A stretch of 64,000 nt of DNA from Promethearchaeota archaeon (GCA_048939015.1 JBHLPW010000005.1:9632-73631), one strand, 5' to 3'. Positions 6,451 through 58,293 are shown, numbered from the stretch's first letter. Translations and numbers: made by a program. Notes: generated by a model not told the origin, from the sequence alone.

Positions 6451-6762
6451 TTATATCCATCCTGCTTCTTTCATTTTCTTTTGTAATTCTTTATTCTGTT
6501 CTAATCCTAATTGTAAAGCAGATTCTCCAAATATCCATTCTCTATTAGGATCATCAAAATCATTATAGTAATAACAGTATCTTATTTCCAATTTACCCTT
6601 CATTAAAATCTTTTGTGCTAAATACTTGTAAACCTTGTTCTTTCTTTCCTCATACTCTATTTCAACTTCGTCTAAGATCTCTCCTTTAACAACCGTTCCA
6701 TCAGGATATTTATACTCAGGTTTTCTCTTATTAAATGGTCTTATTTCTCTATAAAGTTTTAT
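6451..6762 (-). CDS. Hypothetical 103-aa protein with probable ATA start (missed by ORF track)
   Basis: Open frame (M)KLYREIRPFNKRKPEYKYPDG...EIRYCYYYND...WIFGESA...EAGWI*; SD AGGTGA at 6772-6777; directly downstream of the integrase. Confidence 0.65.
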   Translation of the reverse strand: MKLYREIRPFNKRKPEYKYPDGTVVKGEILDEVEIEYEERKNKVYKYLAQKILMKGKLEIRYCYYYNDFDDPNREWIFGESALQLGLEQNKELQKKMKEAGWI

Positions 6763-6782
6763 TTTTCTTTCTCACCTTTTCA

Positions 6783-8057
6783 TTATTCTATTGGATAATA
6801 GTCCGTTTCAGATATTTCAATATTTTTTTCTGGAATTTCTTTAATCATCATTCGTTTAGCAAGTGAAAATAATTGTGGTGATATCTCTACTAATTTTTCT
6901 ATTCTTTGTCTTAATTCTTTTACTTCATCTTTCAGTTCTTTGTTTTCTTTTTTAATAGCTTCTATTTCATATGGTTGAGTTATTAATTTGACAGCAATTT
7001 CCTTTTCATCTCCTTCCTTAATAATATTATTACATTTCCAGCAAAAAAAATTTTCTTGAGCATTTTCAGTTCTACAGATGGGACAGATTTTAGGTTTTTT
7101 TGGCTCTTGTTTTGGAACTTCCACAGCCTCATCAGTTAAGATATTAATCACATCATCATCATTTAAGTGAAAATAGACTTTTGCCATTGTAGAACCAGCA
7201 GACCAACCAGCAAATTGACGAATTTGAGCCTCATTTAATTTCGTTCGTGCTAATTCGGTTAATCTGGAATGTCTAAATAGATGTGGATAAAGCTTTCTTC
7301 CATTCCACTGTTCAGGAAATTTGTTTGTTAATTTTTTAATGATAAATCTTAAATAATTATTTACAATCACATTTGAAGAAAAGTTAAAAAGTAAATCTTT
7401 TGACTGAAAATCGTTGATTTCAAGATATTCTTTTATATATGGAATAGATTCGATTAAAGGTACATCTCTTCGTCTTGTTTTTGATTTTACTATTTTTAAA
7501 GTAGCGTATCCACCATTAAAACGAATGTCTTTTCTTGTAATATTAAGAACCTCGTCTATTCTTAAAGCTCCTTCATACATTACCATGATTAATGTTCTAT
7601 ATTGAAGATTACATACTTTTAAGATTTGGTCCAAATCTTCTCTTGAAATTAAGTCAATTTTACTTAGTTGCTTTGTTTTTCTATTTATTCTTTTAGGAAG
7701 TAATTTTTTTAAGTCTGTTCTATCAGAAAATTTGAAATATTGCTTAAGTCGATTCGCATGCATTTTTTGGGTACCACTCTTAAGACCATTCCACCATTTG
7801 CAGTTAAGAAAGTCTTTAAGATCCTGTTCAGTAAATAGATTTATATTGTTATTTTCTAATGTAAAATCTTTTTCTTTATTTCGACAGCTTTCATTTCTCT
7901 GATTATCAGTTTCAAATAATTTGCCAATAGTTACTAAATGATTTAAAATTGTACCATCTGATTTACCTTTTAATTGGTTATAATAATATTCTTCAATATT
8001 ATTGTCCTCAGATTTTAACCGTTCCAAATACTTATTAATTAAGTTATTTAAATCCAT
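6783..8057 (-). CDS. Tyrosine recombinase/integrase with C-terminal Zn-ribbon and coiled coil (SNJ2-like architecture)
   Basis: Catalytic R (GALRIDE), K (SKT), HLFRH, AGW, Y (KVYFH); CPIC...CWKC ribbon. Confidence 0.92.
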   Translation of the reverse strand: MDLNNLINKYLERLKSEDNNIEEYYYNQLKGKSDGTILNHLVTIGKLFETDNQRNESCRNKEKDFTLENNNINLFTEQDLKDFLNCKWWNGLKSGTQKMHANRLKQYFKFSDRTDLKKLLPKRINRKTKQLSKIDLISREDLDQILKVCNLQYRTLIMVMYEGALRIDEVLNITRKDIRFNGGYATLKIVKSKTRRRDVPLIESIPYIKEYLEINDFQSKDLLFNFSSNVIVNNYLRFIIKKLTNKFPEQWNGRKLYPHLFRHSRLTELARTKLNEAQIRQFAGWSAGSTMAKVYFHLNDDDVINILTDEAVEVPKQEPKKPKICPICRTENAQENFFCWKCNNIIKEGDEKEIAVKLITQPYEIEAIKKENKELKDEVKELRQRIEKLVEISPQLFSLAKRMMIKEIPEKNIEISETDYYPIE

Positions 8058-8159: not shown

Positions 8160-9086
8160 ATGCTAGAAGTAAATCTATCCGGTTTAAAATTAAAATCTCC
8201 TATTATTTTAGCCTCAGGAATTTTAGGAGTCTCATATTCTTCAATGAAACGAATTATTGATGCTGGAGCAGGCGCTGTCACTACAAAATCTATAGGACCA
8301 AGACCTAGAAAAGGATATAAGAATCCCTCTATTATTGAGATATATCCTGGAACTTTCATAAATAGTGTAGGTTTAGGTAATCCCGGAATCAAAGAATTTA
8401 TCTCAGAGATAAAAGAAATAAAAACTCATAATATTCCTTTAATAGTGAGTGTTTTTGGAAATTCTAATGAAGAATATCTAAATGTAGCAATCGAGGCTGA
8501 AAACGCTGGAGCTGACGCGATTGAAATTAATATTTCTTGTCCCCATGCTGAAGTGTCTTCTATAGGTATTGATAAAGATTTAACTTATGCTATTGTTAAA
8601 TTTCTAAAAAAGACACTATCTATTCCTCTTTTTGTAAAACTGAATCCAAATGTAACAGACATAGTAGAAATTGCTTTAGCAGCTGAGAATGGTGGTGCTG
8701 ATGGAGTTGTTGCTATAAATACATTAGCCGCAATGAAAATAGATGTATATACAAAAAGACCAATCTTATCACATGGAAGCGGTGGGCTTTCTGGGAAATC
8801 AATTAAACCTATAGCTATAAAGAAGGTTTATGATTTATTTAAAATTTTAAAAATTCCAATCATTGGATGCGGAGGGATAGATTCATGGCAAGATGTAATA
8901 GAATTTTTTTTAGCTGGAGCCTCTGCAATACAAATCGGTACTGCTTTATATAATGGAACTGAAATTATAACTGAAATTAATCATGGAATAACTCAATATC
9001 TGAAAAATAATAAATATAACTCTATTAATGAGTTAAAAGGGTTGGCTCATCAGTTTAAAACTCAGGAGGTACCGGATTATGACTGA
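8160..9086 (+). CDS. pyrD: Dihydroorotate dehydrogenase, family 1B catalytic subunit
   Basis: ASG, TTKS, NSVGLGNPG, EINISCPH, VKL, INT, GGLSG motifs. Confidence 0.95.
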   Translation: MLEVNLSGLKLKSPIILASGILGVSYSSMKRIIDAGAGAVTTKSIGPRPRKGYKNPSIIEIYPGTFINSVGLGNPGIKEFISEIKEIKTHNIPLIVSVFGNSNEEYLNVAIEAENAGADAIEINISCPHAEVSSIGIDKDLTYAIVKFLKKTLSIPLFVKLNPNVTDIVEIALAAENGGADGVVAINTLAAMKIDVYTKRPILSHGSGGLSGKSIKPIAIKKVYDLFKILKIPIIGCGGIDSWQDVIEFFLAGASAIQIGTALYNGTEIITEINHGITQYLKNNKYNSINELKGLAHQFKTQEVPDYD

Positions 9087-9933
9087 AAATACAATAATGA
9101 CAGTGGTAATTCAGGAAATTATTGATGAGTGTAAAAATGTCAAAACTCTTGTTTTTAATATGAAAACTAGTAAAGGAAATAATTATATCACCCCCAAACC
9201 AGGACAATTTGTTATGGTATGGCTACCAGGTATAGATGAGATTCCAATGTCCATATCTAACTGTGATAATAATGGAAATTGGTCTATCACAGTAAAAAAT
9301 GTTGGTGATTGTACAAAAGCTATGTATAACTTAAACATTGGAGATTATATAGGTGTAAGAGGCCCATTAGGTAATCATTTTGAGATACCTAATGATAATT
9401 CAAAAAAGATATTCTTAATTGGTGGTGGAATTGGTATGGCTCCTCTTAAATTTCTCTCAACCTACCTTACAGAAAGGAATATAAAACATATTATTATTGA
9501 AGGAGCTAAAATTCATGATGATTTAATATTTATAGAATATTTTAAAGAATCAAAAACCAATTATCGCGAAATTTTTTATTGTACTGATGATGGAAGCTAT
9601 GGAATAAAAGGGATTACAAGTGATGTTTTTAATGAAAATGTAAATCAATGTTACGAAAAAGAACTTTCAAATTTGGTTGTATATTCTTGCGGTCCAGAAA
9701 AAATGCTATATAAATTATTTCAAATATGTCAAGATTATAATTTAGAGTTTTACGCTAGTCTTGAAAGAATAATGAGGTGTGGATGTGGATTATGTGGATT
9801 ATGCGCTTTAGATCCATTAGGTTTACTGGTTTGCAAGGATGGACCAATATTTAACTCGGAAACTCTAAAAAAAATTCAAGATTTTGGAAAATACCAAAGA
9901 GATTTTACTGGTAAAAAAATATCATTAGAGTAA
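9079..9933 (+). CDS. pyrK: Dihydroorotate dehydrogenase electron transfer subunit
   Basis: PGQFVM, RGPLG, GGGIGMAP, TDDGS, CGPE, MRCGCGLCGLC...VCKDGP; overlaps pyrD. Confidence 0.93.
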   Translation: MTENTIMTVVIQEIIDECKNVKTLVFNMKTSKGNNYITPKPGQFVMVWLPGIDEIPMSISNCDNNGNWSITVKNVGDCTKAMYNLNIGDYIGVRGPLGNHFEIPNDNSKKIFLIGGGIGMAPLKFLSTYLTERNIKHIIIEGAKIHDDLIFIEYFKESKTNYREIFYCTDDGSYGIKGITSDVFNENVNQCYEKELSNLVVYSCGPEKMLYKLFQICQDYNLEFYASLERIMRCGCGLCGLCALDPLGLLVCKDGPIFNSETLKKIQDFGKYQRDFTGKKISLE

Positions 9934-22158: not shown

Positions 22159-22551
22159 AAAAAACTAATTTTTGTTGTTATAATAATAAATGTCGTTTGC
22201 ATATTTAAATGTTATTGTGCTAACAAACTATGTGCAAAAAAACTTGAAGATGGGTTTATTTGTATAAAAAAACATCTAGGTAAAAAATTTGTTGTAATGT
22301 ATTTTTAGCACAAATTATATCTTTTTCAATTTAAAAATGACATAATACCCTCATATATTATTTTTTTAATATTTGATACAAGAATTTGTGTACAAATTTT
22401 GAATTATTTCCTACAAAATTTTTTAACACACTTTTTTAAGAACCTTCAAAATTGATCATGACTCGGACTAATGATGTTTTCACAATAATTAAATAATAGT
22501 TCTTTTATTATGGTTGCAAGCAAAATTTAGTTAGAAATTTGTGGTGCAAAA

Positions 22552-23487
22552 ATCACCGATCCTGAGAAAAAAGAGGAAAAACCTGCTGCAAATAAGAATA
22601 ATGATGAGACTTATATGAGTGAAGAAGATAATTCAATTAAGAAAACACCAGAAATGGAGAGATATGAAAAGGAGACTCAACGATATGCGATCTGGCGAGG
22701 AACTATTACCGAAGGTTTTAGAAAGTGGCAAAAAGGAGAGAAAATTTATCAACGAGACAAAGAACGAATATCTTTATATGTTTCTGAAGAAACTAAAAAT
22801 AAATGGAAGTCTTACATTGAAAATGATGGAGACCTTACAATTTCAAAACTTATCCGAGAAGCAGTTGCAGCATTTATAGAGAGTGAGACGAATGGCTCTC
22901 AGTATAATCTTTCAAAATTAAATCCTCAAACAATTTCAAATATTTCTCACACTTTAAAAGAACCTCTTACTTCGATTAAAGGGTATTCACAGTTATTACT
23001 AGAGAACTATCAGGATAAATTAAATACTCAAGTGTTTGACACTGTAAAAAATATCTTTGAGCAAAGCCTTCTTCTTGAGAAGAAAATAATCAGTATTCTC
23101 GATAATATGAAGGTCGAATCAGAATACGATGTTTTATTAATCGAAGATGATTTGGCGACAATTCGGTTAATAACAAGTTATTTTGATAGTAAAGGGTTCA
23201 AATGTAAAGGTGTTGTCAGTGGATCAAAAGGTTTGGAGGAATTAGGAAATACAATCCCAAAATTGATTTTGTTAGATATTATTTTACCTGATTTAAGCGG
23301 ATATGATATTTGCAAAACGATAAAGTCTGATAAGGAATGGGCAAATATACCAATCTTTTTCTTGACAGCTATTGCAGGGGCAGAAGTAAAAAAGAATTTA
23401 AAAGAAACTAAGGCTGATGGATTCATTTTGAAACCATTTAATTTTTCTGATTTTGAAGTAATTTTTGATATTTTGAATAAAAACTAA
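22552..23487 (+). CDS. RHH + HisKA(DHp) + receiver domain regulator; probable ATC start at 22552 (first ATG 22615)
   Basis: RISLYVSEETK..W...TISKLIREAV (RHH); SHTLKEPLTSIKGYSQLL (DHp); IEDD, LLD, LTA, KPF (REC); no HATPase domain. Confidence 0.85.
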   Translation: MTDPEKKEEKPAANKNNDETYMSEEDNSIKKTPEMERYEKETQRYAIWRGTITEGFRKWQKGEKIYQRDKERISLYVSEETKNKWKSYIENDGDLTISKLIREAVAAFIESETNGSQYNLSKLNPQTISNISHTLKEPLTSIKGYSQLLLENYQDKLNTQVFDTVKNIFEQSLLLEKKIISILDNMKVESEYDVLLIEDDLATIRLITSYFDSKGFKCKGVVSGSKGLEELGNTIPKLILLDIILPDLSGYDICKTIKSDKEWANIPIFFLTAIAGAEVKKNLKETKADGFILKPFNFSDFEVIFDILNKN

Positions 23488-23792
23488 TTCTAATTGAATA
23501 ACTTTTAGGAACACTTTTTATTTATAATTTAATTACCATATTCAAAAATATTTGGACATAATCCAGATAACATAATAACTTTATAATAAAAAACATTTAT
23601 AAATGGATAAAAAACTATACAATATTGTAAATAATGGTAAATTCTAGAGGGTTTTTTATTAAAAAAATAGAAAGAATCAAAATACTGGAGGTTTCGTTAT
23701 CAATTTAGCTATTTATTTTTTATAACTAAAAACTCTTTAATACTATAATTTTTACAAAATACTATATATATGATAAAAAAAGGGGAACACCA

Positions 23793-24758
23793 GTGTCTAG
23801 CAATAAAAAAAATTCTGAAAAAAAGGAAAATAAAAAGAATAATGATGATAAATCTGAAAAAAGATTTATGACTGATGAAGAAATCGATAATCTTGATTTA
23901 AACAGTAAGCAAGCAGAAGACTTGATGAAACAATATGAGGATGAAACTGAAAAATATGCTAAATGGCGTGGTTCCATTACTGAAGGATTTAAGAAGTGGT
24001 TAAAAGGAGAAAAAATCTATGATAGAGATAAAGAAAGAATTTCATTATATGTGTCTGAGGAAACAAAGCAGCAATGGCAAGATTTTAAAGATTCTCATGA
24101 ATATTCAACGATTTCAGCTTTAATAAGGGATAGTGTTGACTTTTTTATAGATCAAAAATCAGATGAGATAGGAGAGAGTTTGCGTAAAATGGATGAGAAA
24201 ACGATTTCTAATATTTCTCATGCATTAAAAGAACCACTTACATCTATAAAAGGATTTAGTCAGCTCCTTCTTGAAAATTATGGAGATGAATTGAATGAAG
24301 AAATCCTGCTAACCGTTAAAAATATTTTTGATCAGAGCTTACTCCTTGAAAACAAAATAATTAACGTCTTGGATAATATTGTTTCTGAAGAACCCCACTC
24401 TCAGTATGATATTCTTCTTATTGAAGACGATTTAGCAACCATCCGATTGCTTACAAGTTATTTCGAAAGTAAAGGATATGTATGCAAAGGAGTTGTAAGT
24501 GGAACCAAGGGTTTAGAGGAATTAAGGGGAGGGATTCCAAGACTTATTCTGTTAGATATCATACTTCCTGATATCTCTGGTTATGAGATTTGCAGAATGA
24601 TTAAGAATGATAAACGATATCAGGATCTTCCTATATATTTGCTAACCGCTATACCAGGTTCTGAAGTTGAGAAGAAAATGAGTGAAACTAAAGCTGATGG
24701 TTATATTTTAAAACCATTTGATTTTTCGGATTTTGAGGTAGTTTTTCAATTTTTATAA
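23793..24758 (+). CDS. RHH + HisKA(DHp) + receiver domain regulator, paralog (GTG start)
   Basis: Same architecture: RISLYVSEETK, SHALKEPLTSIKGFSQLL, IEDD/LLD/LTA/KPF. Confidence 0.88.
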   Translation: MSSNKKNSEKKENKKNNDDKSEKRFMTDEEIDNLDLNSKQAEDLMKQYEDETEKYAKWRGSITEGFKKWLKGEKIYDRDKERISLYVSEETKQQWQDFKDSHEYSTISALIRDSVDFFIDQKSDEIGESLRKMDEKTISNISHALKEPLTSIKGFSQLLLENYGDELNEEILLTVKNIFDQSLLLENKIINVLDNIVSEEPHSQYDILLIEDDLATIRLLTSYFESKGYVCKGVVSGTKGLEELRGGIPRLILLDIILPDISGYEICRMIKNDKRYQDLPIYLLTAIPGSEVEKKMSETKADGYILKPFDFSDFEVVFQFL

Positions 24759-25618: not shown

Positions 25619-25739
25619 AAGAATTTCACATAAAAAAGTGTAAAAAGATTAAAGAAATTAAGATTAGGTTCAGTAATAATACTTTAGACCCAAAGAATTT
25701 TATGAAATGCTTTATAATGATAATTAAAAGGAAATTAAA

Positions 25740-25842
25740 CGGGCTATGAGGGAATTTCGCACTCGTCTTCTTCGAGGAATGTTTCGAACCCCCGACCTGC
25801 CGGTTAAGAGCCGGTTGCGCTACCTGCCTGCGCCAATAGCCC
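25740..25842 (-). tRNA. tRNA-Lys(CTT) with 29-nt non-canonical intron at position 59/60 (25754-25782)
   Basis: GGGCTAT/ATAGCCC acceptor stem, anticodon loop CT-CTT-AA, canonical BHB GGGGG-TTCG-AAA-CATTC / GAGTG-CGAA-ATT-CCCTC. Confidence 0.92.
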
Positions 25843-25881
25843 TTTGATTTAATTTTAATATAATCATAGAACTCTATAAAA

Positions 25882-25983
25882 CGCAGATGGAGGGACTCGA
25901 ACCCCCGAGCGCTCACGCGCACCGGCTCGCTTGAATATAGACGATTCTCAAGGCCGGCGTCTTACCAGCTAGGCTACATCTGC
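25882..25983 (-). tRNA. tRNA-Ser(TGA) with 19-nt canonical 37/38 intron
   Basis: GCAGATG/CATCTGC acceptor stem, CT-TGA-G, central helix CTTG/CAAG, long variable arm, TTCGAGT loop. Confidence 0.92.
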
Positions 25984-26649: not shown

Positions 26650-26764
26650 CCTTGATTTTAAATTGAAAAATTCTATTTATTTTATTCTTTTAATGTTTAT
26701 CATAAAATATTAAAATTTTAGATCGTTATATTGAAATTGTACCATATAAAAATTTTATTAGTGT

Positions 26765-26847
26765 GCAATCGTCGCTTAGCCTGGTAGAGCGCCGGTCTGC
26801 TAAACCGGTGTCCAACGGACTCGTGGGTTCGAATCCCACCGATTGCG
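26765..26847 (+). tRNA. tRNA-Ser(GCT)
   Basis: GCAATCG/CGATTGC stem, CCGGT-CTGCTAA-ACCGG, long variable arm, GTGGG-TTCGAAT-CCCAC. Confidence 0.95.
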
Positions 26848-26856
26848 CTCAAATAA

Positions 26857-26932
26857 GGGCCAGTGGTCTAGTGGTTATGACGTCTCGCTTACACCGAGAA
26901 GGTCGGGAGTTCAATCCTCTCCTGGCCCACCA
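26857..26932 (+). tRNA. tRNA-Val(TAC), CCA encoded
   Basis: GGGCCAG/CTGGCCC stem, TCTCG-CTTACAC-CGAGA, ends ACCA. Confidence 0.95.
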
Positions 26933-26944
26933 TTCTTTAATTAA

Positions 26945-27736
26945 TTAGAAAAGTTGTCTAATTTTTTTTGGACGTATAGCACTTAATTTACAATTTTTAA
27001 GCCTATTTCCAATATGTGCGATGATACCAGGGGCATCAGATCCCTCTTTCAATAGAACTAGGTTTTCTAAAAATCCAAATCTTTTAACTGAGATGATATC
27101 TCGGAAATGTCCTTTTTGTGTGATAATTTTTTTGAATTGACCTTTAGTTTCTCCGCTTAAAAACACACCCTCAATATTTTCAGAGATAAGTTTCTTAAAA
27201 AAATTTAGAGTATTAGGTGTCAATTCCCCTAGAAGTTTACTCTTATCGTAATTTATCTCCGTGATTTTAACATTTACAGGAAAATGATCAATAAGATCAT
27301 ATGCTTCAATTATGTCTTTTAAGGATTTTTCTTTTCCATTACATAATTGTTTTCGTAGAGTATGTAGATTAATAAGTACGTCAATTTTTGGATCCAAAAT
27401 GGCACAATCCACAAATAGACCAAATCCAACCTTTCCGACATCTACAAGATTACCTTTATATTCCTTACCAACTTTAATTTCCTTAAATTCATTTATAGAT
27501 CCTATCTCCTTTTTTAATAAGTTATAAACAAATTGTTCTTCAGGACCATTGATGAGGATCTCAAATCTTTTATCGAATTTTCTCAGCTTTTTAATAGTTA
27601 TTGAAGTATCAGGAAAACCTTTAACATGTTCTCTTAAATATTTAAGATATCTAAGAAAAATGTCTTCCTTCTTTCCTTTATCAGATACATTGTAGATCTT
27701 ATCAAACAGAACTAAATTTTGCACCATAAAAAACAC
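26945..27736 (-). CDS. DUF2110-family / S1-like OB-fold archaeal protein
   Basis: GxLVDVGKVGFGLFVD, LIDHFP, RFGFLE...CK/LKEGSDAPGIIAHIG pattern. Confidence 0.75.
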   Translation of the reverse strand: MFFMVQNLVLFDKIYNVSDKGKKEDIFLRYLKYLREHVKGFPDTSITIKKLRKFDKRFEILINGPEEQFVYNLLKKEIGSINEFKEIKVGKEYKGNLVDVGKVGFGLFVDCAILDPKIDVLINLHTLRKQLCNGKEKSLKDIIEAYDLIDHFPVNVKITEINYDKSKLLGELTPNTLNFFKKLISENIEGVFLSGETKGQFKKIITQKGHFRDIISVKRFGFLENLVLLKEGSDAPGIIAHIGNRLKNCKLSAIRPKKIRQLF

Positions 27737-27900
27737 TTATGTGGTAGTATCAATTAAAATTTAAGTATTTTAACATAATTATAGAAGATTTATTTCAAAA
27801 ATTCTAAAATTGTGAAACTACCATTCTAAAAAGATTTATATTTCAATATTTCTATCTTTCTATAAAACTAAAATCTGATTTTTATTAAAGATGAAGTAAT

Positions 27901-30769: not shown

Positions 30770-31127
30770 TAATAAAAAATAAAAAAAATTTGATTTAAAT
30801 TTACGTTAATAGTTAATTAATTATTTTGAAAAGATTACAAAATAATGACATATTTTAATTGAAATTTGTTTTCATCGTCATAAAAGAACAATATATAGAG
30901 AAAATTGAAATGTATCAGAACTAGTTTAATTTATATAATTTCTTTTTAAAATATTTAAAAAAAATATAAATTGACTCATTTATTACTTCTTTTTAAGATA
31001 TAAAAAAAATAACCTAAAAAAGAGATAATATAAATAAGAAAAATTAAATTCTCAAAATTAGTTGTAATAACTAAAATAGAAGGGATTTTAATATTTTTAA
31101 AAAACATTAAAAGGAGGATGATTTAGT

Positions 31128-31847
31128 ATTTTTCAAGGCCAAGGTCGTGGCTATGATATGGCTATAACGCAATTCTCACCAGAAGGTCGACTTTTTCAAG
31201 TAGAATATGCTATTGAGGCCGTTCGAAGAGGCACGACTGCCATTGTTTGTAGAAATAAAAATTCTGTTGTGTTTGCGGTTGAGAAAAAAGGTTCGGAGCT
31301 TCAAGAACAAAGTACTGGATCAGAAAAAATATTCAAGATTGATGATCACATTGGGGTTGCAATTGCAGGTTTAACGGCAGATGCTCGAGTTCTTATTGAT
31401 AGAGCCAGAGTTCAAGCTCAAGTGAATATTTTAAATTATGATGAGAAAATTTCTGTTAAGGACAGTACGCTAAATATATGTGAATACAAACAAGTCTTCA
31501 CGCAGAATGCTGGTGTACGCCCTTTCGGCGTTTCTTTCTTAATCGCAGGAATAGATAATGATGGGACAACCTCCTTATATTTAACTGACCCTAGTGGAGC
31601 AATGTGGGGTTATAAAGCTTTTGCAATTGGTTCTGGAGCAACTGAAGCAAGAACATACCTTGAAGAACATTATAAAGAGGATATGAGTGATGAGGAATTA
31701 AAATTATTACCATTAAGAACTTTAAAAGAATTAATGGCAGATAATCTAAATAAAAATACATGTGATGTAGCTTTTATATTGAAGGAAGATAGAAAATTTA
31801 AATTATTAAATTTGGAAGAAAAGGAAGAGTTATTAAATAAACTGTAA
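31128..31847 (+). CDS. psmA: Proteasome subunit alpha; probable ATT start at 31128 (first ATG 31158)
   Basis: FSPEGRLFQVEYA, RPFGVS, DPSG, AIGSG. Conserved ..GYD.. N-terminus lies upstream of the first ATG; SD GGAGG at 31113. Confidence 0.96.
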   Translation: MFQGQGRGYDMAITQFSPEGRLFQVEYAIEAVRRGTTAIVCRNKNSVVFAVEKKGSELQEQSTGSEKIFKIDDHIGVAIAGLTADARVLIDRARVQAQVNILNYDEKISVKDSTLNICEYKQVFTQNAGVRPFGVSFLIAGIDNDGTTSLYLTDPSGAMWGYKAFAIGSGATEARTYLEEHYKEDMSDEELKLLPLRTLKELMADNLNKNTCDVAFILKEDRKFKLLNLEEKEELLNKL

Positions 31848-38514: not shown

Positions 38515-38523
38515 TTATAAACT

Positions 38524-40176: not shown

Positions 40177-40859
40177 TTGTTAAAGAATTCAATATTGATG
40201 AATTAAATCTACACTTTTTTGTTGGGATAAATCAAATTGCAATAGACTTAGATGAATTTTTAAATTTTTATACTATTAAAAATCAAAAAGAAATTTTAGA
40301 TCAGGTTTTTAAGCTCATAGAAGAAATCCAAAATAAATTTGAATATTCAGTAGTACAATTCATAAAGGAAAAATTTATCTTGAACTCTGATCATATTTTT
40401 ATGGCATGCTACAATTTACAGAAAGCATTTCAACAAGATATTAACATTTCAAACAAAAAAAACATCGAGCTTTTTTTATATTTAGCAAGTAATAGACAAA
40501 TTAAGAAAAGTATTGAAGCTTTTGGAATTAATATTACTGATTTTAATAAGAACAGTTCTACTTATTGCATTATTTCTCCAAATGATAATATAGATACCAT
40601 AAATGATGAATTAATACAAAAGCTTAAAGCGTACGATGCTCAATTTACCCTCAATAATCAAACTATAAAGAAATTAATTACAATTAAAGAGTTTTTTAAA
40701 ATCTCCGAAGATCAAATTAATATTATCTTAAATTCTTACGGGACACAAAATATTAAAAATAAAATTAGTTTAAAGTCTAAATATTCTGCTGTTCATGATT
40801 TAATTTGTGAAAAAATGGCATTACTAAGTTTGGAACAAGTTAAAACTAAGAAATCCTAA
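40158..40859 (+). CDS. KEOPS subunit Cgi121-like protein
   Basis: HIFMACYN..KAF...NIS....IELFLYLASNRQIKKSIEAFG and C-terminal EKMALL. Confidence 0.8.
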   Translation: MEFTSLIVKEFNIDELNLHFFVGINQIAIDLDEFLNFYTIKNQKEILDQVFKLIEEIQNKFEYSVVQFIKEKFILNSDHIFMACYNLQKAFQQDINISNKKNIELFLYLASNRQIKKSIEAFGINITDFNKNSSTYCIISPNDNIDTINDELIQKLKAYDAQFTLNNQTIKKLITIKEFFKISEDQINIILNSYGTQNIKNKISLKSKYSAVHDLICEKMALLSLEQVKTKKS

Positions 40860-41380
40860 TTATATCCATTTTTTACCCTAATTACCTCACTTTCCTTTAA
40901 AAAAGATATTCCACTAATATTTCCTAAAATTTCAATTCTAATTATTTTATCTGGATGTTCAAGATCAACCTTATAATCAAGATCACTTGCTATTGTTTCA
41001 ATAAAATGTTCTCTTTCAATTTTTTCGTGATGTCTTCGTTTTAATATTATTTTAAAAGATTCCCTTTCATTAAGAAAATCTCTATGATTTTCTTGAATAA
41101 TATATTTTATTGTTTTTATGTCAGTTTCGCAAGTAAAATCGATTGGTACAATTTTTAAAATAAATTGGAAAAAGTGGGGTCTTTTTTTTTGGATTTTTTT
41201 TATTTTGGAAATAACTTGTTTTGAATTCATATTAGTCAAAGCTGTAATTAATCCCGGAAACTGAATTCCCGAGATGATTGGGTATGTATCACCACACATT
41301 AATAAAATAAACCACAATTCCGATTTTGCATTGGTTTCATTATATCGAGAAGTCGAGACCAAGAGATTGAAGTTTTTTAT
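40856..41380 (-). CDS. THUMP domain RNA-binding protein; probable ATA start at 41380 (ORF track TTG at 41362)
   Basis: FNLLVSTSR, ILKIVPID, ESFKIILKRR, KVDLEHPDKIIRIEI; SD GGAGTGAT at 41385-41392. Confidence 0.85.
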   Translation of the reverse strand: MKNFNLLVSTSRYNETNAKSELWFILLMCGDTYPIISGIQFPGLITALTNMNSKQVISKIKKIQKKRPHFFQFILKIVPIDFTCETDIKTIKYIIQENHRDFLNERESFKIILKRRHHEKIEREHFIETIASDLDYKVDLEHPDKIIRIEILGNISGISFLKESEVIRVKNGYN

Positions 41381-41394
41381 TCATATCACTCCGT

Positions 41395-49047: not shown

Positions 49048-49165
49048 CTCAACATTATTTTTAACACAGGATAACATTTTTACGGAATATCTTCACGATA
49101 ATTATATTTCTAAAAACTATAACTCTATACTCTTTAAAATCTAAATCTTAATTAGAGGATGTATC

Positions 49166-57945: not shown

Positions 57946-58215
57946 TTAAAGTTTATCGACTATTTCCTCTCTAATAGCAGTTCCTCTTTTATTCAAAACT
58001 ATCATTTTCTTATTCTTAGAGACGCGAAATACATGAATTATTGACATACTCTCTAATTTCAGAAAGATTTCTTCTAATATTAATGAATTTATAAAGGGAA
58101 ATTCCTTTTTTAGTAGTTCTTCAAGTCTTTTATCTAATATTTCTCCCTTATTTTTAATTAAAATATCTATAATTGAATTCATTACTGGTTTTTGGTTCCA
58201 ACGATGAGTTTCTAT
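57946..58215 (-). CDS. Small winged-helix protein downstream of cdc48; probable ATA start at 58215 (first ATG 58182)
   Basis: Frame extends (M)ETHRWNQKPVMNSII...; SD AGGTGG at 58222-58227; in-frame stop at 58231. Confidence 0.7.
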   Translation of the reverse strand: METHRWNQKPVMNSIIDILIKNKGEILDKRLEELLKKEFPFINSLILEEIFLKLESMSIIHVFRVSKNKKMIVLNKRGTAIREEIVDKL

Positions 58216-58293
58216 AACAATCCACCTGTTTTAAAAATAAGAAATAGAGATCTATATTAAGAAATAATTATTTTCTAATTAATTTTACGAGTT

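Follow-up and report, generated by a model that had tools for sequence, protein, structure and literature searches.

The window (the whole 64,000-nucleotide stretch of DNA analyzed, G000:C43:9632-73631) comes from an archaeal MAG, G000, of 4.86 Mb and 30% G+C, with 94.9% completeness and 6.5% contamination. Its genus is a Loki-type Asgard archaeon (Promethearchaeota), uncultured and with many species sequenced. On the plus strand, the window carries psmA, encoding the proteasome alpha subunit, with a full coding sequence of 239 codons plus stop at 31128 to 31847, as supported by Pfam and structure alignment. The proposed start is an ATT (31128 to 31130), identified by codon-for-codon alignment with the ATG or GTG of orthologues. 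The sequence reads TGA(31119) TTT AGT ATT(31128) TTT CAA GGC CAA GGT CGT GGC TAT GAT ATG(31158). An in-frame TGA (31119 to 31121) thus stands two codons 5' of the ATT, and a Shine-Dalgarno (SD) core, GGAGG at 31113 to 31117 (AGGAGG from 31112), lies 10 nt ahead of it, at offset 16. The internal ATG at 31158 to 31160, which is the start in the public gene call, encodes Met11 in Tyr-Asp-Met. Direct reading confirmed what the original prediction had described here, namely, the TGA, the GGAGG 10 nt ahead of the ATT, and the Tyr-Asp codons before the first ATG. Upstream of the SD is an AT-rich spacer of about 320 nt, and the neighboring gene is on the opposite strand. Read-through of the TGA, or an alternative genetic code, was considered and discarded, given a further in-frame stop (TAA at 31098) with no ATG between the two.

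To place these starts in an evolutionary context, we compared orthologues from 40 relatives, 24 from the genus of G000 and 16 from three other families in the order. Of 30 psmA loci, 26 have ATG or GTG where G000 has the ATT. ATT itself is found in four genomes including G000, each with a stop one or two codons 5' and a GGAGG at the same distance, and one outgroup has ACG. The SD of relatives with ATG or GTG, GGAGG or AGGTG, has an identical offset. Across 80 species-representative genomes, in which the psmA start was additionally compared, the codon is ATG in 56, GTG in 14, TTG in 1, ATT in 6, and ATA in 3, and all nine orthologues with ATH (ATT, ATA, or ATC) have an in-frame stop one or two codons 5' and lack any upstream canonical codon.

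The stretch between the ATT and the first ATG behaves as coding sequence. The start codon in relatives is followed by F-Q/S-x-x-G-x-G-Y-D, and the codons for the nine residues in G000, F-Q-G-Q-G-R-G-Y-D, vary synonymously while the amino acids are conserved. The predicted ATT-started product begins (M)FQGQGRGYDMAITQF. In this protein, the Pfam family Proteasome_A_N (PF10584) covers residues 9 to 31, opening at Tyr9, two residues ahead of the first ATG, and Proteasome (PF00227) covers residues 32 to 217. Alignment with the alpha chain of PDB entry 1pma shares its register from residue 3, G-Y-D aligns with the G-Y-D-R of solved archaeal alpha subunits, and the match to one such subunit has an E value of 1.5e-62. 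The gate-forming Tyr-Asp is encoded only if translation starts at the ATT, and the public 229-amino-acid form is without it. As a side observation, the whole genus has Tyr-Asp-Met at this site (31152 to 31160 in G000), whereas the outgroup families and solved archaeal alpha subunits have Tyr-Asp-Arg; the Met codon taken as the psmA start by gene callers stands in place of the gate-cluster arginine.

Four further sites had been predicted to share this organization, and rereading their sequences showed an ATH codon with an upstream in-frame stop, as described, at each. The THUMP-domain gene (40856 to 41380, minus strand; Pfam THUMP) has an ATA start at 41380 to 41378 that abuts an in-frame TGA (41383 to 41381). 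Its SD, GGAGTGAT (41385 to 41392, minus strand), lies inside the 14-nt gap that follows the TAA of the upstream gene (41397 to 41395). At the aligned start, many genomes have a canonical codon (ATG, TTG, or GTG), four have ATA, one has ATT, and eight have ACG; in relatives, a stop codon often stands immediately 5'. The N-terminal residues K-N-F-N-L-L-V-S-T-S-R are conserved among relatives, whereas most of them have TTA or CTT in place of the downstream TTG found in G000. The relatives with ACG are L034, L036, L037, L041, L042, L044, L049, and L052; in four of the eight the ACG directly follows a TAA, and the next 15 codons contain no canonical codon.

A small wHTH-like gene of 89 codons (57946 to 58215, minus strand) starts with ATA (58215 to 58213), in the context TAA AAC AGG TGG ATT GTT ATA (58215), where the TAA at 58233 to 58231 is in frame and AGGTGG (58222 to 58227, minus strand) is the SD. 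In about 20 of 24 genus genomes, the start is ATA or ATC six bases past AGGTGA or AGGTGG, and in three genus genomes and the outgroups an ATG stands at the aligned start or at most one codon from it. The residues E-S-H-R-W-N-Q-K-P are conserved, and a public protein of 89 amino acids with over 90% identity starts M-E-T-H-R-W-N-Q. The downstream ATG (58182), from which the public call begins, is unconserved, being ATA, GTA, TTA, or CTA in relatives.

The gene at 22552 to 23487 (plus strand), named RHH-REC in the original prediction, matches Pfam HisKA and Response_reg and is therefore called HisKA-REC here. It reads TAG ... GGT GCA AAA ATC (22552), with the in-frame TAG at 22528 and a weak SD, GGTG (22543 to 22546, plus strand), 5 nt ahead of the ATC. 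Most genus genomes have ATC, ATT, or ATA behind a conserved GTGGT-NNAAAA; in L114, an outgroup genome of family f4, an ATG follows GGTG-N5 with the spacing unchanged. Charged tails differ in length among genomes and are always open and in frame. As caveats, the SD is just GGTG, and an ATG 34 codons further in is well conserved. A paralogue in the window (23730 to 24755) starts with GTG (23793) in G000, where most relatives have an aligned ATT.

The fifth candidate is a 103-amino-acid orphan (6451 to 6762, minus strand) whose candidate ATA (6762 to 6760) lies behind AGGTGA (6777 to 6772) in the sequence TGA GAA AGA AAA ATA, so that the in-frame stop is the TGA of the SD. A single partial match, without canonical start or SD, was found among the 40 relatives, and a protein collection contained no match at 56 to 181 amino acids. 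A mini-ORF, ATG AAA AGG TGA (6772 to 6783), is in frame with this gene and ends with the TGA of its SD. Elsewhere in G000, aragorn finds a tRNA-SeC gene; the 103-amino-acid gene gives no sign of Sec.

Taking these comparisons together, psmA ATT 31128, THUMP ATA 41380, wHTH ATA 58215, and HisKA-REC ATC 22552 are very probably true starts, as judged from orthologues with canonical codons (ATG, GTG, or TTG) at the equivalent positions, while the ATA of the 103-amino-acid gene is a candidate without comparative support. The claimed recurrence of ATH starts was thus supported at four of the five sites. Systematic misannotation had been anticipated as well, and the public forms of psmA (229 amino acids), wHTH (78 amino acids), and HisKA-REC (290 amino acids) from the same contig are indeed exactly the short products expected from the downstream canonical starts.

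Spacing to the SD was considered next to that of canonical starts. The 16S 3' end was searched for in the MAG and is absent, so the SD was defined empirically and scored as 5-mers of AGGAGGTGATC, which peak at offsets 13 to 16 at canonical starts genome-wide in G000. The offsets of psmA (16), THUMP (14), wHTH (15), and HisKA-REC (13) match this range, as predicted, but that of the 103-amino-acid gene (18) lies 3 nt beyond the optimum of 15.

We then examined the remainder of the window by aligning each conserved ORF with syntenic regions of 40 to 74 kb from 12 relatives. In this comparison, ATH starts account for 4 of about 52 conserved genes of G000. Besides the HisKA-REC paralogue at 23730, relatives use ATH in other genes that begin with ATG or GTG in G000: ATA opens the gene at 27895 in two relatives and, after TAG, the gene at 38521 in one, and the paralogous genes at 49145 and 50613 share one orthologue, with ATA in one genome. 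An ATC start for the ORF at 9037 to 9930 was rejected, as an aligned canonical ATG or TTG lies 10 codons further, behind AGGAGG. The ORFs at 26706 to 26945 and 25629 to 25961 were rejected as genes, being shadows of tRNAs; the three tRNA genes (25882 to 25983, 26765 to 26847, and 26857 to 26929) are Rfam RF00005 matches.

A genome-wide scan of G000 covered ORFs of at least 120 codons and the codons between the upstream stop and the first canonical start, counting those at least six codons ahead of the latter. Out-of-frame ATH and other codons served as controls in place of a reversed motif, which was uninformative because its composition differs. An SD precedes, at the appropriate distance, 3.0% of in-frame ATT codons and 0.9% of out-of-frame ones (Fisher p 8e-8); for ATA the proportions are 2.6% and 1.1% (Fisher p 5e-4). 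The in-frame SDs peak at the single offset of 15, with 27 for ATT and 21 for ATA over a baseline of about 4. In the same scan, out-of-frame ATH showed no SD peak, and AAA, AAT, TTA, TTT, and TAT showed neither an in-frame SD excess nor a peak. The SD-anchored spectrum at offset 15 comprises ATG 57, TTG 32, GTG 6, ATT 30, ATA 32, AAA 18, and AAT 5, that is, 62 for ATT plus ATA versus 95 for ATG, GTG, and TTG.

Among ORFs of at least 100 codons, an SD precedes the first canonical start in 487, and in 107 an SD with ATH lies upstream of an SD-less first canonical start, versus about 39 expected from out-of-frame rates. About a third of the 107 are expected by chance. The strict criteria recover only two of the four comparatively supported window sites, so the true number is probably above the net of about 70. 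Only about 10 to 15% of canonical starts in G000 have an SD motif, which makes SD-based counts a poor basis for extrapolation. Our estimate of the ATH habit is a few per cent of genes, roughly 2 to 8%, and perhaps 10 to 20% of those with a clear SD.

Domain boundaries agree with this signal. We ran Pfam on the 20 candidates having the longest SDs, and in 11 of them the domain begins at profile positions 1 to 10 and at residues 1 to 21 of the ATH-started protein. Starting these 11 proteins at the first canonical codon, which lies 7 to 76 codons downstream, would cost them conserved motifs (P-loops, Rossmann motifs, or HMA domains). The families concerned are Usp, DsrE, ApbA, a Gtr1/RagA-type GTPase, alpha/beta hydrolase, Rpp14/Pop5, DUF134, GFO_IDH_MocA, GNAT, an OYE-type oxidoreductase, and the HMA domain of a P-type ATPase.

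Inspection of aIF1, suggested by the original prediction, revealed that this gene itself has an ATT start. The single aIF1 (SUI1) gene of G000 (C27:8575-8895) reads TGA TAA GAC AAC ATT AAA GAC GAC GAG ATT TGT CCT ATA TGT, and its zinc knuckle (CxxC...CxC) sits 5' of the first canonical codon, a TTG. The predicted ATT-started product begins (M)KDDEICPICSFPK. The ATT is invariant in all 22 genus genomes, whereas the isoleucine codon five codons 3' of it varies among ATT, ATA, and ATC; outgroups start with ATA, GTG, or TTG and never with ATG. The invariance would fit a regulatory use of the codon. An SD-like GTGAT precedes it at offset 18, compared with the optimum of 15, and the longer spacing may add to the weakness of this start site; further upstream lies an AT-rich intergenic stretch. 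The protein is homologous to eIF1 and aligns with M. jannaschii aIF1 from residue 3, and the zinc knuckle is well established as a module in most archaeal aIF1 proteins (PMC6237735). Loop 1 reads RRKWGR where solved aIF1 has KRRFGK, retaining its basic and aromatic character, and this comparison showed no obvious loss-of-stringency change in the loop.

Only one initiator-type tRNA gene was found (C27:31233-31393, minus strand). It has an encoded CCA and two introns, one past the anticodon loop and one within the T loop. With the introns removed in silico, it adopts a tRNA-Met(CAU) fold that has A1:U72 and an anticodon stem containing three G:C pairs. Standard finders missed this gene; aragorn and Rfam recover only 13 to 20 tRNAs in G000, a low number attributable to introns in tRNA genes. 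Pattern searches for a further initiator tRNA, one whose anticodon is changed, gave only the one gene, with CAU, a weak check given the incomplete tRNA set. By themselves, the aIF1 and initiator tRNA sequences offer no explanation for the relaxation.

From the alignments and the genome-wide signal, we consider it highly likely that the ATH codons are genuine, SD-positioned translation starts in this Lokiarchaeial genus, read by ordinary Met-tRNAi. SD pairing would position the small ribosomal subunit, whose P site would then accept AUU, AUA, or AUC, and in relatives sometimes ACG, with the ordinary Met-tRNAi (anticodon CAU). With the mismatch in the third position of the codon, or in the second in the case of ACG, the protein most likely still starts with methionine. 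Start codons drift among ATG, GTG, TTG, and ATH between close relatives, and this free drift suggests that near-cognates suffice given a good, optimally spaced SD. The proposal of relaxed third-position selection is supported by the lineage-wide recurrence but was too narrow in its restriction to the third position, given the ACG of THUMP in eight relatives.

The factor aIF1 destabilizes mismatched initiation complexes. The fixed AUU at its own gene most likely serves a negative feedback of the infC/eIF1 kind, in which less aIF1 would allow more AUU initiation and hence more aIF1. The proofreading threshold may have been lowered in the lineage, which would accord with the altered aIF1/aIF2 fidelity put forward in the original prediction. 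More tentatively, Lokiarchaeia might possess a globally lowered stringency, with AUU and AUA as regular starts whose yield is set by a self-limiting aIF1 concentration, which we regard as possible but short of probable. If so, weak-start genes, the proteasome included, would form a regulon, and the system would be a prokaryotic, SD-based counterpart, possibly a forerunner, of eIF1-governed near-cognate initiation in eukaryotes.

Alternatively, translation could start at the next canonical ATG, TTG, or GTG, the upstream SD and ATH being fortuitous or vestigial, with, for example, a gate-less proteasome alpha as the outcome. Gene callers do choose these downstream starts, and all four genes have such a codon in G000, but it is unconserved at wHTH (ATG) and THUMP (TTG), and the downstream canonical codons have no preceding SD. 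Moreover, the peptides in between are conserved at the protein level, the zinc knuckle of aIF1 precedes the first canonical codon, and canonical starts would truncate the Pfam domains of many other genes, all of which renders initiation further downstream highly improbable. Errors in sequencing or assembly, pseudogenes, or programmed +1 shifting out of a stop-overlapping ATG (ATGA) could in principle mimic ATH starts, and an ATG does lie one base ahead of the frame at psmA (31118) and THUMP (41384), where an A-run also adjoins the site. We hold such an artifact to be barely conceivable, however: these ATH codons are found again in MAGs that different studies assembled independently, and the ATH-started genes are intact and under purifying selection. 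The +1 shift in particular was dismissed, as ATT-type psmA orthologues do not conserve the out-of-frame ATG, which is absent at wHTH, HisKA-REC, and aIF1 and abuts the SD with no spacer.

A third possibility, that ATH starts are used only through termination-reinitiation within operons and not de novo, draws on the ATA of THUMP, 14 nt past the stop of the upstream gene, and on the many candidates with a stop zero to two codons 5'. Reinitiation may contribute at THUMP. Yet the frequent stop two codons upstream is the TGA within the SD's own GGTGA, and both psmA and aIF1 follow long AT-rich spacers, which reinitiation cannot explain; as a general account, it is quite improbable. Dedicated decoding, in which an initiator modified at C34 (compare mitochondrial f5C34) or a second initiator-like tRNA reads AUA, AUU, and AUC, appears unlikely, if less remote. 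Mammalian mitochondria start at AUA and AUU by means of a tRNA-Met modified by NSUN3/ABH1 (PMC5048346), the bias of G000 to third-position variants (ATT and ATA far above ACG and CTG) fits a wobble expansion, and tRNA detection in this MAG is incomplete. Against this, the sole initiator-type gene found has a canonical sequence, tRNA modifications are unreadable from DNA, and the second-position mismatch of the THUMP ACG is unexplained by wobble expansion. Overall, SD-positioned initiation at ATH by the ordinary initiator is the simplest account.

SD-led near-cognate starts are known from bacteria, where E. coli infC (encoding IF3) and pcnB use AUU, AUA, or AUC, and NCBI table 11 names ATT, ATC, and ATA as possible initiators. 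The archaeal case resembles infC and pcnB in placing a near-cognate behind an SD and, most likely, in using the normal initiator tRNA, and it resembles infC further in that the gene of the proofreading factor itself, here aIF1, begins with AUU, suggesting autoregulation. It differs in extent, with a few per cent of genes, housekeeping ones included, as opposed to a handful per bacterial genome, and in that the proofreader is an eIF1 homologue unrelated to IF3, within a eukaryotic-type machinery. In E. coli, mRNAs starting with AUU or AUA are translated by the ribosomes but compete less well (PMC5499595).

In eukaryotes, near-cognate initiation is controlled by eIF1 (PMC4705826), whose own mRNA has a poor-context AUG and is autoregulated (Ivanov et al. 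2010, as cited in PMC6237735). The parallel to the archaeal genus lies in a homologous factor with a weak start on its own mRNA, whose stringency would set the yield of weak starts, and an eIF1-type feedback would apply to aIF1 as well. In contrast to cap scanning and the CUG, GUG, and ACG used in Kozak context, placement here is by the SD, and AUU and AUA are favored. Mammalian mitochondria share the same set of start codons, AUA, AUU, and AUC, in a sizeable share of their genes (PMC5048346), but they have leaderless mRNAs, read AUA as methionine, and rely on a specific tRNA modification (f5C34), whereas the archaeal starts are SD-led.

According to a 2020 review, archaeal start codons comprise only AUG, GUG, and UUG (PMC7531240), and our full-text literature search turned up no report of ATH starts in Asgard archaea. 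Textbooks likewise admit only these three codons, although archaea initiate translation with factors of the eukaryotic type. With near-cognates used at scale in a lineage near eukaryotes, and with the proofreader under AUU, the evolution of start-codon stringency becomes directly testable. There are also practical consequences, as public gene calls are the basis on which Asgard proteomes are mined for eukaryote-like proteins, modeled, and expressed. Were a few per cent of the genes to start at ATH, the calls for them would be truncated or missing; the losses here include the gate of the proteasome, P-loops, Rossmann motifs, and the zinc knuckle of aIF1. Gene finders for such genomes should therefore allow ATT, ATA, and ATC behind an SD. 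One ATA-started candidate is itself eukaryote-like: the Gtr1/RagA-type small GTPase at G000:C32:95328-96233 (L286) has its first canonical start 65 codons in, and a start there would cost the protein its P-loop.
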